This document shows positions 48,001-57,000 of a stretch of DNA of 64,000 bases, piece after piece. The stretch covers positions 1,733,267 through 1,797,266 of the forward strand of contig CAVYXA010000001.1 of the NCBI GenBank assembly GCA_963772365.1, read 5' to 3'. This DNA comes from an uncultured Verrucomicrobiae bacterium (lineage in GTDB: Bacteria > Verrucomicrobiota > Verrucomicrobiia > Chthoniobacterales > UBA10450). The position numbers are program-made. Within the stretch, counting starts at the first letter, position 1. Every line of letters starts with the position of its first letter.

Positions 48001-51000
48001 TGTTCCGCAAACATTCCAAGGCGTTTATATTAATCTGGCTACTGGCGAGGTTTTTCCTTCGCCGGGCCCCGGCTGGGACTTCAATCCCTATTCTTCGGGA
48101 GGAACTTTTGCCATTTATTGGGCGCCTCCATCTGCCGCTGGTGTTGCCACCGATCCTGGTTCTTCCACCTACGCGGACCTTGGTATTGGCTCAGTTATAG
48201 GTCCGTCATCGCCGTTTACTACGGAAGCTCTAGGCACGGATCCCAATTTCCTTACTGCCGGCACTCATGTGCTCGGATTTCGTTTTCTCAACGAGGGGAC
48301 CGGTGTCGTGGACTATGGTTATGCCTTCGTTCAGACAGGTGCGGGCACCGGTTTTCCGTTAACCATCCAGAGCTGGAGCTTCGAGAATAATGGCGGCCCG
48401 ATCATGGTCGTGCCCGAACCTACCACCACCGCTCTGCTGAGCGCGGTGGCTCTGGCCTTGGGCGCGATTGGAGTGCGTCGGTGGCGCCGCGGCAAGGCCG
48501 CATGATACTCTGCCAAGATTTTTCGGCGCCTTGAGCCCTAAATCGTCGCTGAACTCGGCTCTCTCTTGTCAAGCTTTGTTAAGCTGCGAAATATGTCTCG
48601 GCGACTAACGAATTAGTGCAGGCCATCGCAAAAAAGCTTCTGCTCATCGGATGGGATGCAGCGGATTGGCAGATGATTCATCCGCTGCTGGACGCGGGCC
48701 GGATGCCCAATCTAAAACTCTTGGTTGAGCACGGCGTTATGGGCAACCTGCTCACGCTTCAGCCAATGCTCTCCCCGATTCTCTGGACTTCAATCGCAAC
48801 CGGCAAACGCGCCTACCTGCACGGTGTCCACGGTTTTGTCGAACCCACACCGGACGGCACAGCTCTGCGCCCAATCGCCAGCAGCACTCGCAAATGCAAA
48901 GCGCTTTGGAATATTCTCGCGGAGTCCGGCAAACGCTGTCACGCCCTGAGCTGGTATGCCAGCCACCCTGCGGAAAACACTAACGGCGTCTATGTTTCTC
49001 AACAGTTTCCAGTCGCCCCAGCTTCCGCCACTCCCTCATCCTGGCCGCCGCAGCCAAACAGCGTTTGTCCTTGGGAAATTGCCGACTCGTTAACCGAATT
49101 GCGCATTCATCCGCGCGAAATCAATGGAGCGACGCTCTCGCAGTTTATTCCCGCTGGAGCGCAGTTGGACCAGGGCAACCTCGAAGTGCGCCGTTTGCTT
49201 GCCGGCTTTGCCCGGCGGCTGGCCGAGTGCGCGTCTCTCCACGCGGTCACAACTGCTGTGATGGAGGAAGTGTCGTGGGATTTTTGTACGGTTTATTACG
49301 AAGCAATCGATCACATCGGCCACGATTTCATGCGGTTTCATCCCCCGCGGATGGAACAAGTGAATCCCGATCTCTTTGAAGCATTCAACGGGGTCATGAA
49401 TGCCACCTACGAGCTGCACGATCAAATGCTCGGCCGATTGATCAATCTCGCCGGACCCGAGGCGCACGTGATGATCGTGTCAGATCATGGTTTTCTTAAC
49501 GGCGAACGCCGGCCCAATGGGGATGTCGATCCAGCTCAATGGCATCGCAATTTCGGAATCTTTGTCTGTGCGGGTCCTGGCGTGCGAAAAGATGAGATTA
49601 TCCAAGGCGCAACGCTGCTGGACATCGCGCCGACGGTGCTTGCCATGTTCGGCCTGCCCGTCGGGCGCGACATGGAGGGCAAGGTGCTCGTCAACGCGTT
49701 CGAGCGAATGCCGGAAATCGAGCGTATTACATCGTGGGAAACTGCATCGGCTTCTGCTCCGGTAGGGAAAACGTCGGTCTCTGAAATCCAGGATGATCCT
49801 GAGGCAGCGGCCGCCGTGCTGCGGCAATTCGTTGAGCTCGGGTATCTCGACGCACCGGATGAAGACACGCAGCGCGATATCGCCCGAGCCCGAGCCGAGC
49901 AAAAGTTCAATCTCGCCTGTAGTTTCATTGAAGGAAAAAAACCGGTACGCGCGCTGGAATTGGCGGAACAGTTGGCGGCGGAGTTTCCGCAGGAAGCGCG
50001 CTACGCTATTCTTGTTGGCCAGGCAGCTGTTTCTGCAGGTTCGGCAGAATCGCTCCAGAAAGCGTTAACTACTTTGGAACGTCTTCAACCCGATCATAAG
50101 CACGTGCTCCTTTTTCGCGGATTCCATTCCTGGTGCACGGGCAATATTGCTGGCGCACTGGAACATTTCCAAACCGCGGCACAAAAAGGGCCGCGCGATC
50201 CGTGGCTGCTTTGCAGGATCGGCCGGGCCTTCTTGCGCCTGCGGCGTTGGCCCGAGGCAGAAAAGATCTTTCGTCAATCTCTCACCCTCGATGCCGACAA
50301 TGCCGAAACCTACTACGGCCTAAGCATTGCTCTTCCGCGACAAGGTCGGTTAGAAGAGGGGCTGGAATGCGGCTTGAAAGCGATTTCGCTTCTGCACGAT
50401 TTTCCGTTGGCTCATTTTCAACTCGGCGCGATTCTGTCGCGACTCGGCTGGTACGAACGCGCTCTCCAAGCTTTCGACATCTGTCTCGCCATGCGCCCGG
50501 ATTTCGCGCTGGCTCATCGGTATGTGTCACGCATTTCCCAACAATTGGGCCGGAGAGGAGCCGCGGAAAAACACCGGGAACGGGCCCAGTTAATCCTTGA
50601 ACAGGGCTTGCCTCAGCCTGCCGTCGATTAATCCAACTGGGCGCTCAGGGGATTCGTCCTTAGCGAACAGCTTCACTTATCGGCCGGCCTCGTTGAAGGA
50701 TGCGTTTTGATTCCTAGACAATGCCTTCGCGCAATGCGCTGTGCTTGCCAGCTAACAACTCCTGCACGAGATTATAACCCCGCTTGTCTGCGTTCTGTGA
50801 AACGCCGGCGAAATAATTGTCGATCCTGATTCGAGCGGATCGACAGAAATAATTCGCGAGCGAAAGAATCTCGTCGGCCGGTTCGCCGCTGTCGATCTTC
50901 GATTGCGCGAACGAACAGGTCGCGCTGATTGCAAACAGTTCGGTCGCGATTCCGACGAATCGCGAAAGCAGCAATTGCTCGCGCTCGAGTTTCGGCCCGA

Positions 51001-54000: not shown

Positions 54001-57000
54001 AAATTTTGAGTCGCCTCGGTCTTTCCAAGATCGACAATCGCATCGAGCTCGAGACGCAGCGATTCATCGACCGAACCCGACAGAGTCTTGTTAACCATCT
54101 CCAGCGCCCGCGCCGGAGCGAGATTACCCTCACCGCCGGCTGCGCCGCGCGCTTCTCCCTGTCCAGGGAGAGGCGGACGCGAAGGGCCTGGTGAGGGTCG
54201 CTTGCCTTCGCTTAATTTCTTCCGAGCTGCATCGAGAAGTTGATCGCGCGTTGCAATCTCGTCGATCAAACCGATCTCGAGCGCGTCTTTGGCCGAGTAT
54301 AATTTCCCTTTCGTGATCACTTCGCCCGCTTTGGCAGTGCCAATGAGTCGCGGCAAACGAGTGCAGCCGCCCCAAGCCGGGACAAGCCCCAAAGTGGTTT
54401 CCGGTAAACCAATCACCGTGGCCGGCTCGTCCGAAGCCACGCGATAATCGCAGGCGAGAGCGATTTCGTAGCCACCGCCGGCAGAAGCCCCATTGATTGC
54501 AGCAACGGTTGGGATTTTGAGTGCCGCCACTCGATTAAATATGCGCTGGCCATTGGCGATGAAATCGCGCAGCTCGCCCGTTTGCGCCTGCCGAAGAAGC
54601 GTCTGTAAGTCGGCGCCGGCAACGAAGATCGATTTTTTCGCCGAAGTGATGATCAACCCGCGCAGCGATCTGTCTTTTTCAATCGCATCGACATGTTCGT
54701 CGAGGTCGTTGAGCGTGGCCGCGTCGAAAATATTCGCCCCCGATTCAGGGCGATCGAACCTGAGGATGGCAATGCCGCTGTCGATCTCGCGCCGGATCAT
54801 GGGATTGGTGGCAACGCTGCCCATTGGATTCATTTTGGATGGTTTCGGAGAAATTCCAAGCCGACAAAACAACAAGTTAAAACCCAAAAAGTTACAAAGT
54901 AGAGCCGCTGCCGCGTCTGCAAACGTGCGGAACGATTTAACCCTTTAACTTTTCAACTCTTATGCGCGTTGCTTTGGCAGGACCGCAATGCTAAGAACGC
55001 GACATGGTCGGCAAACTTTTACTTCCCGAGATCAAAAGCCTGATCGAAGCGCGCAACTTCGGCGCGTTGCGGGAGTTGTTTAGCGATTGGCCACCAGCGG
55101 ACGTAGCCGAAGTGATCCTCGATATGGATGAGGACGACCAGGTCATTATCTTCCGCATTCTTCCTTCGGCGCTGGCCGCCGATGTTTTCGAATATTTCGA
55201 TGTGGAAGCGCAACAGCGGTTGCTGCGGGCAATGGCCCACGAACAAGTCGTCGCCATTCTGAACGAGATGTCGCCCGACGATCGCACGGCGTTGCTGGAA
55301 GAAATGCCAAGCGTAGCTGCGCGCCAGCTCATTCAGTTGCTCACCCCAGAGGAAAGGAAGATGGCCACCTCGCTCCTCGGTTATCCCGAAGACAGCGTCG
55401 GCCGCTTAATGACGCCCGACTTTATCGCGGTGAAAGACGATTGGACCGTGCAGCAGGTCCTCGATTACGTCCGCGAACATGGTCAGGACAGCGAAACTCT
55501 CAATGTGATCTACGTCGTGGACAATCGGGGCAAGTTGATCGATGACCTCCGCATTCGCGAAATTTTGCTGCGACCGCTGACAGCGAAAGTAAGCGATATC
55601 CGAGACGAGACATTCGCCGCACTGAAAGTAAACGATTCTCAGGAAGCAGCGCTCAACGTCTTCCGCAAATACGACCGCGTAGCGCTGCCGGTTGTCGATT
55701 CCAACGGCGTGCTCGTGGGCATTGTGACGAGCGACGACATGCTCGACGTGGCGGAGGAAGAAGCGACCGAGGACATCCAGAAATTTGGCGGCGTGGAAGC
55801 ACTGGAAGAACCGTACATGCGCATTTCATTTTTTCAGATGGTGCGCAAGCGCGCTGTCTGGCTCGTTGTTTTATTCCTCGGCGAAATGCTCACCGCCACT
55901 GCAATGGCGACTTATCAGGATGAACTGGCGAGGGCATTGGTATTGGCGTTGTTTCTACCACTGATTATTTCCAGCGGCGGGAACTCCGGCTCGCAAGCAT
56001 CGACATTGATGATCCGCGCGATGGCGCTCGGCGAAGTGACGTTGCGGGACTGGTGGCGGGTCATGGCGCGCGAACTGCAAGCGGGGTGCGCGCTGGGAGG
56101 AATTCTGGGCGTGATTGGTGTGGTTCGAGTAAGCGCCTGGGCATTGATCGGTGAAAATTATTTCCATCGACAACCGTACGGTCCGCATTGGCCGCTCGTG
56201 GCAGTAACCGTTGGCATCGCGCTCGTTGGTGTTGTTTTGTGGGGAACGCTCTCCGGCTCTATGCTGCCCTTCGTATTGCGCCGGCTGGGGGCAGACCCGG
56301 CAACATCTTCGGCCCCCTTCGTAGCCACACTTGTCGATGTTACCGGCCTGGTCATCTACTTCAGCATTGCCTTACTCATCATGCGCGGAGCAATGTTGTA
56401 AGACGAACATGATTTCGATCAGCAGACTCTTTGGACGCGACCAGAGATTTTACGATTTGCTCGAGGCGAGCGCCCAACAGGCCGACACCAGCGTACATCA
56501 TCTTGTCGATCTCCTGGCGAAGATCGACAGCGAAGATTCCTTCCGCGATCTGGAAGCGTTCGCCGAGAGCCGGCGCGAAGACAAACGCATCACGCAAAAG
56601 CTGACCGAGGAATTAAGCAAAACTTTCGTTACGCCGCTGGAACGGGAAGACATCCAGGGTTTGGCCGCAGCTCTCTACAAGATACCGAAAACCGTAGAGA
56701 AAATCGGCGAGCGAATGTTGATCTGCCCGCAGGACCTTCCCCGGATCAGTTTTGAAAGACAAGTCCAATTGCTGGATAAAGCCGCCGAAGCGGTACTGGC
56801 CATGGTGAAACAACTTCGCAAGGGAATGGATATTCGCACAGCCCGCGAGATGAACGCGAACCTCCAAACTATCGAAGGCGAGGCGGACGAGCTGGAGCTG
56901 GAATTGTTGCGCGATCTGTATCAGGGCAATTACGCGCCGAAGCACATCATCTTTTTGCGCGATCTTTACGATCTGCTGGAAAAAGTGATCGATCGCTGCC

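Follow-up and report, generated by a model that had tools for sequence, protein, structure and literature searches.

The window, a stretch of 64,000 nucleotides from the ~90% complete Udaeobacter-like genome GCA_963772365.1, encodes an acyl-CoA dehydrogenase (ACAD)-family flavoenzyme, here termed the W-type, in a genome in which no electron-transfer flavoprotein (ETF) was found. The locus raises the question of which acceptor reoxidises the flavin of this enzyme and of the two other ACAD-family enzymes of the genome, one GCDH-like and one ACAD9-like (C3-type). A literature search, whose coverage excluded subscription journals, returned no paper dealing with a missing ETF, or with acyl-CoA oxidases, in Udaeobacter or Verrucomicrobiota.

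The W-type enzyme and its locus

The pair of FadE-like and FadJ genes reported in the survey's finding was confirmed with Pfam, and the best PDB hits of the W-type protein were ACAD9 and VLCAD (Table 1). The fadJ-like gene is placed directly upstream of the W-type gene on the same strand, an adjacency observed in 21 of 21 family loci, in none of which does a thiolase gene adjoin fadJ. At 13 of the 21 loci, genes for L-lysine 6-transaminase and piperideine-6-carboxylate dehydrogenase each occur in the vicinity of the W-type gene; the transaminase represents the lysine route towards glutaryl-CoA. The divergent neighbour, which we take to be MgtE-like, showed no sign of a redox role. The frameshift in the window copy is likely an assembly error, since splits affect 12 of the 123 genes tested in this assembly, housekeeping genes included, and all 20 family orthologues fetched contain one open frame. 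Pseudogenisation after ETF loss was rejected on the same grounds of intact frames in relatives and common splits in this assembly. The assembly is indel-rich and chimeric at two contig ends, and two further ACAD matches (C1:15223 and C1:16137) are located inside a foreign segment of contig C1 with 70–72% GC.

Table 1. Features of the W-type locus (positions in the window)
Position	Strand	Feature	Basis
44475..46010	-	piperideine-6-carboxylate dehydrogenase, lysine route	NF050084 above cut-off
46175..47560	-	L-lysine 6-transaminase, probable start 47560	TIGR03251 above cut-off
50714..52634	-	ACAD-family flavoenzyme (W-type), ACAD9/VLCAD fold, ~640 aa	Pfam, PDB best hits
51119..51136	-	WYPRQW aromatic motif, C-terminal region, candidate membrane-contact segment	inference
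51278..51289	-	IFEG, catalytic glutamate kept	aligned with ACAD9/VLCAD
51317..51385	-	GGRGY loop with 10-residue insertion	alignment
51773..51802	-	FMGLRALYNG, Asn at position of ACX4 Asn255 / Mcd E377N	PMC6017585
51938..51955	-	flavin-binding motif KLWCTN, dehydrogenase-type Trp and Thr kept	
52244..52245	-	extra C, frameshift in W-type gene, probable assembly indel	DNA alignment with four relatives
52761..54887	-	FadJ/FadB-type enoyl-CoA hydratase / 3-hydroxyacyl-CoA dehydrogenase	3HCDH_N, ECH_1
55004..56401	+	divergent conserved neighbour, MgtE-like by appearance	same cluster in 20/21 family loci

The W-type protein has the fold, catalytic Glu and FAD motifs of an ETF-dependent ACAD, and the genome lacks EtfAB and ETF:quinone oxidoreductase. 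On sequence grounds, it belongs to an uncharacterised subfamily with an ACX4-type Asn, present in 116 of 117 W-type sequences, and a 10-residue insertion, present in 112 of 117, which extends the GGRGY loop to 16 residues as compared with 6 in ordinary ACADs. The residue four positions before the Gly that follows this Asn is never Glu (Cys in 91, Leu in 14, Ser in 11, one unread); in MCAD, the Glu at this position presumably takes part in docking to ETF. The W, Y, P, and W of the WYPRQW motif are invariant in the alignment. In the predicted model of a relative, the insertion forms a short helix and the ~50 extra N-terminal residues make up a low-confidence part. No Pfam match to the ACOX C-terminal domain (PF01756) was found in the window W-type protein, and the E. 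coli-type FadE profile NF038187 (~815 aa) was missed, with 105 and 126 bits against a cut-off of 1300. All clusters obtained from the ESM Atlas bore generic ACAD names, and a plasmid search yielded three unannotated actinobacterial matches. The W-type is presumably what has been named FadE10.

The modelled relative matches VLCAD, ACAD9, and EpxF (TM ~0.8, ~31% identity), and both the W-type and the C3-type resemble ACAD9/VLCAD (8PHE, 2UXW) and EpxF (9GN5) in fold and length. The W-type differs from ACAD9/VLCAD in its Asn-Gly, its insertion, and the absence of a docking Glu, and the C3-type in having Tyr for Trp. EpxF is reported to demonstrate that the ACAD9/VLCAD fold is able to react with O2, but it is a biosynthetic monooxygenase (PMC12624316); it was rejected as the nearest functional model, the match being one of fold only.

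Distribution of ETF and of the core enzymes

The survey's claim that EtfA, EtfB, and ETF-quinone oxidoreductase (ETF-QO) are missing withstood profile, six-frame, and tblastn searches. Across the Udaeobacter-like genome, PF01012 had no match, no EtfA was found in six frames, the ETF-QO Fe-S domain was not found, and the family membrane ETF oxidoreductase gave zero matches as a tblastn query. A divergent ETF hidden in this genome was also rejected, as HMMs built from the family EtfA (n = 7) and EtfB (n = 7) were without match in six frames (best E 0.75 and 0.88). The description of the gap as family-wide was, however, too strong. EtfA was found in 7 of 60 family genomes and, among those with a completeness of ≥90%, in 32 of 146 (22%), the carriers belonging to 5 of 25 genera; it is missing from 114 of the 146 (~78%), and whole genera are negative (0/11, 0/13, and 0/10 genomes).

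Family EtfA sits in a four-gene cassette of etfB, etfA, and genes for a membrane Fe-S/CCG protein and a PigA/RedW-like dehydrogenase, which was complete at 31 of 32 loci examined, the remaining locus being truncated by a contig end. This optional cassette, absent here, resembles EtfAB with the EtfD/EMO membrane oxidoreductase (PMC8593149). It travels with its own PigA/RedW-like dehydrogenase and not with the three core ACAD-family enzymes, which are retained in family genomes without it. The cassette ACAD also lacks the docking Glu, although it is inside an ETF operon; hence, loss of this residue is not diagnostic.

In agreement with the survey, acyl-CoA dehydrogenases are general in the family (61 of 61 genomes). 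The W-type was present in at least 53 and the C3-type in at least 59 of the 61; the catalytic Glu was found in 20 of 20 family orthologues of each, and the C3-type frames were likewise open. In a phylum sample of 251 genomes, 17 of 19 W-type holders lacked EtfA, although 132 of the 251 have it, and 8 of the holders had no PF00441 match other than the W-type. Among 50 further holders, 23 were without EtfA, 11 of these labelled outside Verrucomicrobiota, and 27 bear ETF, with the same W-type residues. Taken on its sequence and distribution, the W-type very probably works independently of ETF. A COX1-family (heme-copper-oxidase) gene was observed in 38 of 39 ETF-less W-type holders tested and in 0 of 7 non-holders, the controls being hand-picked and kin among the genomes not independent. 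This link suits a quinone route as well as an oxygen route.

The GCDH-like and C3-type enzymes

Both other ACAD genes named by the survey were recovered, the ACAD9-like C3-type gene (C3:292568) intact and the glutaryl-CoA dehydrogenase-like gene (C4:88.9–90.1 kb) split in this assembly. The flavin motif of the C3-type, KRYITN, has Tyr for Trp and keeps the Thr at flavin N5. The GCDH-like enzyme has Gly instead of this Thr (KxWIGN), a replacement shared by all 30 family loci, by this genome, and by 120 of 120 closest homologues; the Gly-type sequences form two separate clades in a quick tree. Its best structural-database matches are the GCDHs of human (1SIQ), Thermus (2EBA), and M. smegmatis (3SF6), the catalytic Glu is kept, and the equivalent of Arg94, which we take to be the glutaryl-binding residue, is kept in 29 of 30 loci. 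Like the true GCDHs, it has genes of lysine catabolism nearby in some family members. Those GCDHs use ETF and carry Thr at N5 (Ser in 4W9U), whereas the family enzyme carries Gly.

Relatives from ETF-bearing outside lineages keep Thr in 19 of 19 cases with a readable motif, seven of them within ~4 kb of etfA, and an ETF-negative outside genome (G313) holds two Gly-type GCDH copies. However, the GCDH of a Planctomycetota MAG without ETF (G322) is of the Thr type, and in one genus (g114) six genomes combine a missing ETF with an ordinary-looking ACAD (two sequences fetched), so that a missing ETF is not always paired with oxidase signatures. A fused acceptor domain in short-chain ACADs of ETF-negative genomes was considered and rejected, as the long frames looked like GC-rich upstream extensions.

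The Arabidopsis short-chain acyl-CoA oxidase ACX4 (2IX5/2IX6) shares a GCDH-like fold and Gly at N5 (KRWIGN) with the GCDH-like enzyme and Asn255-Gly with the W-type, which lacks the N5 Gly; the ACX4 signatures are thus divided between two separate family enzymes. The GCDH-like protein (~387 aa) resembles true GCDHs (E 1e-104 to 1e-120) more than ACX4 (1e-77), and differs from the latter in keeping Arg94, in having Thr at the Asn255 position, and in the absence of the long N-terminal extension, which in ACX4 is said to keep other acceptors out. In engineered methylsuccinyl-CoA dehydrogenase (Mcd), T317G alone conferred slow oxidase activity (27.7 mU/mg) and cut electron transfer to ETF by ~80%, E377N alone did not produce significant oxidase activity, and the engineered oxidase lost its activity on introduction of Y378G (PMC6017585). 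The same Thr-to-Gly change appears to be natural and fixed in the two clades of the family GCDH-like enzyme; the enzyme differs from the engineered methylsuccinyl-CoA oxidase Mco in subfamily and substrate, in keeping Trp, and in the absence of the Mco Asn (PMC6017585). Owing to Gly at N5, as in ACX4 and engineered T317G, the GCDH-like enzyme is quite probably a glutaryl-CoA oxidase.

Candidate electron acceptors and their implications

Independence from ETF is already known among the ACAD family. The benzylmalonyl-CoA dehydrogenase IaaF accepts O2, not ETF, and its authors considered that another acceptor is required under anoxia (PMC8360864). Such independence is suspected for E. coli FadE, which has no known ETF partner and for which direct quinone reduction was proposed (PMC11495604). 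These enzymes belong to other subfamilies and come from organisms that have ETFs of their own (A. aromaticum and E. coli), whereas here the whole core set of a lineage operates in genomes with none. A yeast oxidase can also substitute for EtfAB/EtfD in a bacterium (PMC8593149). As ETF is mostly lacking and one enzyme carries an oxidase-type change, the reading we favour, with some reserve, is that the core ACAD-family enzymes run without ETF and that oxygen is their most likely acceptor. Lysine-derived glutaryl-CoA and branched-chain amino-acid acyl-CoAs would undergo the usual desaturation by Glu and FAD, after which O2 would reoxidise the reduced flavin and yield H2O2 for removal by peroxiredoxins; respiration would still receive NADH, supplied by FadJ, the 2-oxoacid dehydrogenases, and the TCA cycle. 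The lack of ETF, the conservation of the enzymes, and the residue changes with their distribution are observed, whereas O2 turnover, substrates, and flux are inferred. The use of O2 by the W-type itself is suggested tentatively. A long-chain beta-oxidation pathway could not be demonstrated: none of the native AMP-binding matches of this genome was recognisable as a FadD-type ligase, one canonical thiolase is encoded elsewhere, and one SCP2-like thiolase lies beside the GCDH-like gene; thiolase matches in the family (49 of 61 genomes) are mostly of a weak-scoring type.

Several observations speak against oxygen. The W-type keeps Trp and the N5 Thr and occurs with the same residues in ETF-bearing genomes, and in Mcd the Asn substitution by itself was without significant effect and even T317G was slow. 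No catalase of the three families sought was found in this genome, in which peroxiredoxins are the sole peroxide-removing enzymes recognised, and catalases are rare in the family (PF00199 in 11 and PF00141 in 8 of 61 genomes). Catalase scarcity fits a different arrangement, which we consider rather unlikely, in which the long ACAD9/VLCAD-fold enzymes on the membrane reduce menaquinone directly or via a quinone-linked FAD/Fe-S protein, the GCDH-like enzyme alone being an oxidase. In line with it, both long enzymes keep the N5 Thr and have a C-terminal region of VLCAD type that bears the invariant aromatic motif, this genome has futalosine-route menaquinone genes, and direct quinone reduction has been proposed for E. 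coli FadE. Two YdiJ-like FAD/Fe-S/CCG proteins are also encoded, but their genes lie apart from every ACAD locus, the predicted model shows no apparent transmembrane anchor, and the ACX4-type Asn is left unexplained; judged by redox potentials, menaquinone is also poorly suited to accept the electrons of acyl-CoA oxidation.

It is improbable that an unrelated soluble one-electron carrier (ferredoxin, cytochrome, or cupredoxin) stands in for ETF. ACADs in general accept one-electron dyes, the W, C3, and short-chain types retain most of the residues typical of dehydrogenases, and one small ferredoxin-like ORF is present in this genome; yet at 60 family and 98 outside loci none of the three ACAD genes has a conserved electron-carrier gene next to it, on which ground a neighbouring carrier was rejected as the acceptor, and an unknown carrier common to all holders would need to occur across several phyla. 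That the ETF gap is a draft-genome artefact, or the enzymes decaying relics after ETF loss, is very improbable and largely refuted: the incomplete, chimeric, and indel-rich assembly, with two of its three ACAD genes frameshifted, would allow it, but near-complete genomes and whole genera lack EtfA, and the W-type and C3-type are widespread with frames open and Glu kept. The survey's conclusion that an acceptor other than ETF is used stands as far as it rests on the ETF-less majority of genomes, the cassette's own dehydrogenase, and the phylum pattern; it overstated the gap, missed the frameshifts, and proposed no acceptor.

Tentatively, the W-type could be regarded as a widespread but so far unrecognised class of acyl-CoA oxidases, or of direct quinone reductases, that do without ETF and provide aerobes of several phyla with a beta-oxidation step independent of it; alongside a naturally evolved glutaryl-CoA oxidase, it would let an abundant soil lineage run its core acyl-CoA catabolism ETF-free. 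The GCDH-like enzyme would then be a natural counterpart of the engineered dehydrogenase-to-oxidase switch, informing flavin–oxygen reactivity, and a part for cell-free pathways needing ETF-free oxidases. Annotation takes an acyl-CoA dehydrogenase to imply ETF and energy capture. If O2 is used, metabolic models would overstate the energy yield of Udaeobacter-like soil bacteria, and an internal source of H2O2 would have been overlooked in cells mostly without catalase. How FadE-like enzymes of bacteria are reoxidised when ETF is missing could be studied particularly cleanly in this lineage.

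ETF absence and the optional cassette

Profile searches of the genome under study (3.35 Mb, six contigs, 90% complete) did not detect EtfA, PF01012 or the ETF-QO domain, and the family's membrane oxidoreductase gave no match. HMMs built from the family EtfA and EtfB reached best E-values of only 0.75 and 0.88, and named controls for both ETF profiles were positive in 10 of 14. The survey's finding that acyl-CoA dehydrogenases (ACADs) occur in this genome without any ETF was thus borne out, but its extension of the gap to the entire family was not, as EtfA was found in 7/60 family genomes of a first sample and in 32/146 at ≥90% completeness, spread over 5 of 25 genera. 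The family corresponds to GTDB UBA10450; close homologues carry the label Chthoniobacterales, and one close locus is labelled 'Candidatus Udaeobacter sp.'

The gene order ACAD-etfB-etfA-membrane Fe-S protein was seen in 7/7 loci of one set and in 24/25 of a second, the 25th being broken off at a contig end; two of the 32 EtfA matches lay outside the locus comparison. The cassette ACAD is PigA/RedW-like, scoring under the PigA/RedW cut-offs, and the surroundings differ from locus to locus. With its own ACAD and varied surroundings, ETF is therefore read as an accessory cassette having its own client. The cassette (L013-L019, L290-L314) is mobile-looking, and neither carrier-protein nor NRPS genes adjoin it.

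Two contig ends, the opening ∼59 kb of C1 and the closing ∼60 kb of C3, have a GC content of 62-72%, against 54% elsewhere. These ends look foreign, and 2/5 PF00441 matches of the genome fall in them. The genes of C1:1-59000 and C3:770000-832895 are actinobacterial-looking; both segments are probably chimeric joins, invisible in the 1.95% contamination figure.

The core dehydrogenases and the window locus

Features of the window and of two further loci of the genome
Feature	Position	Strand	Remark
FadJ/FadB-type gene	window 52761-54887	-	first of pair, W-type gene next
ACAD9/VLCAD-fold ACAD gene (W-type)	window 50714-52634	-	after FadJ/FadB-type gene
Five tandem paralogues	window 31229-42800	-	∼690 aa each, N-terminus in common; presumably adenylate-cyclase/TPR-like, by appearance
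Succinyl-CoA-ligase-alpha-like domain fused to citryl-CoA-lyase-like domain	window 58126-59835	-	NCBIfam scores below cut-off, except one lyase subfamily model
IcmF-like isobutyryl-CoA mutase	C3:251195-254205		two adjacent genes, as in all loci seen (L060-L069)
2-oxoacid dehydrogenase fusion	L315:6476-9553 (C1:578476)		1026 aa; E1-alpha, E1-beta and E2 parts

PF00441 was present in 61/61 family genomes. Typed by match length among the matches listed, at least 53 of the 61 carried the W type (the ∼640-aa enzyme of the window) and at least 59 carried the C3 type (the ACAD9-like enzyme at C3:292568), with 20 of each checked by sequence; the gene for a glutaryl-CoA-dehydrogenase-like (GCDH-like) ACAD was found in 42/61. 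In the family loci compared, fadJ adjoined W in 21/21 and a B12 ribonucleotide reductase adjoined the C3-type gene in 18/21, and no conserved electron carrier gene was found near either. An optional short-chain ACAD type accompanies the split IcmF-like mutase, 9/10 loci examined coming from EtfA-negative genomes. The genome encodes IcmF and a CoA transferase, together with genes of the methylcitrate type and two additional E1 sets for 2-oxoacid dehydrogenases, and no FadD was recognised in it. Acyl-CoAs derived from amino acids would therefore be more probable substrates than long-chain fatty acids taken up from outside.

The window forms the end of contig C1. Its W-type gene carries one extra C at 52244-52245 relative to four relatives, read as an assembly error because 12/123 testable genes of this assembly are split over frames and 20/20 family orthologues are open. 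Downstream lie a lysine 6-transaminase and a piperideine-6-carboxylate dehydrogenase. In W-type operons outside the family (L080-L086), the leading genes often encode a CoA ligase resembling PaaK/FlxY and a thiolase, neither of which is present at the family's locus.

The W-type retains Trp and Thr, with Asn at the ACX4-Asn255 position in 116/117 sequences, and is without Glu at the presumed ETF-contact position. A 10-residue insertion follows GGRGY in 112/117, presumably at the site of MCAD's Glu359 loop, which faces ETF. In the C3 type, changes are limited to Trp-to-Tyr and loss of Glu. The predicted model of a W-type relative (pLDDT 80) matched VLCAD, ACAD9 and EpxF (for EpxF, PMC12624316).

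In a phylum sample of 251 genomes, EtfA was found in 132 and ACAD in 155, an ACAD adjoining etfA in most ETF-bearing lineages. Among the matches listed, W occurred in 19 genomes, 17 of them EtfA-negative, and was the sole ACAD match in 8. Seventeen of 18 outside-family candidates were confirmed; the other was an ETF-operon enzyme instead. EtfA was not found in 23/50 further W-bearing genomes (completeness not given), drawn from 80 named loci as all 36 labelled other than Gemmatimonadota plus 14/44 Gemmatimonadota. Eleven of the 23 were labelled Omnitrophota, Fibrobacterota, FCPU426, Planctomycetota, Acidobacteriota or other, and ETF was present in all 14 Gemmatimonadota and 7 Thermoanaerobaculia holders searched. 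A COX1-family gene was found in 41/43 W holders, in 38/39 ETF-less holders (one by a weak match only) and in 0/7 hand-picked non-holders. A thiolase-fadJ-W block was present in 5/13 viral loci, with no ETF within the flanks examined (L327-L329, L331, L339).

Glycine at the flavin-N5 position of the GCDH-like enzyme

At the flavin-N5 position, human GCDH has Thr170 whereas ACX4 has Gly. The family GCDH-like enzyme has Gly (12/12 rows, 30/30 loci, 120/120 homologues), including that of the genome under study and those of cassette-bearing family genomes. The Gly-type enzymes form two clades with about 55% identity between them, and Arg94 is retained in 29/30 family sequences. GCDH relatives from ETF-bearing outside lineages had Thr in 19/19 with a readable motif, seven of them sitting within about 4 kb of etfA. 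This outside sample comprised 49 genomes searched and 30 loci compared, from which one partial and two non-GCDH matches and five family-type loci (four Gly, one partial) were excluded. Among ETF-negative genomes, G313 has two Gly-type copies and G322 has Thr. Several family and outside tallies take in genomes marked unpublished (G002, G007, G014, G318, G425), from which come one Gly row (G014) and a cut cassette (G425); no claim depends on these alone. In methylsuccinyl-CoA dehydrogenase, T317G, near flavin N5, was the sole oxidase-conferring single change of three and lowered ETF transfer by about 80% (Burgener et al., PMC6017585). In the same study E377N alone was ineffective as an oxidase change and Y378G was lethal to the engineered enzyme, two results that count against the oxidase reading.

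Possible routes of reoxidation and known systems

Several observations argue against an oxidase role. No catalase was found in the genome under study, whose peroxide-removing enzymes are peroxiredoxins only; catalase families were found in 11/61 and 8/61 family genomes, and in most sampled members of this aerobic soil family monofunctional catalase and catalase-peroxidase are both missing. The docking Glu is also missing from the cassette ACAD. The genus g114 is without ETF and has an ACAD that looks ordinary; COX1-negative and EtfA-negative in the two genomes tested, it is a second ETF-less case, apparently an anaerobic one. In g114 (L098, L099; six genomes), an ordinary-looking 590-aa ACAD adjoins an indolepyruvate-oxidoreductase-like gene. 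In a mycobacterium, mutants in etfD and etfBA were rescued when given a yeast oxidase, whereas the dehydrogenases of the species itself failed to do so (PMC8593149). If FadE10 of that species is W-type, this result is evidence against a broad oxidase role for the type. Reoxidation of the ACADs by a membrane route is a possible alternative to oxidase activity, since the genome has genes for menaquinone as well as two FAD/Fe-S proteins of the quinone type.

Our literature search, with subscription journals outside its coverage, found nothing on ETF absence or acyl-CoA oxidases in this lineage. IaaF uses O2 and not ETF as electron acceptor (PMC8360864), and E. coli FadE, with no ETF partner identified, is linked to H2O2 production (PMC11495604). 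The uncoupling of ACADs from ETF at the lineage level is real, and it comes with a specific, testable oxidase candidate. The principle is already known, being shown for IaaF and suspected for FadE; what is new is the variant found in this lineage.
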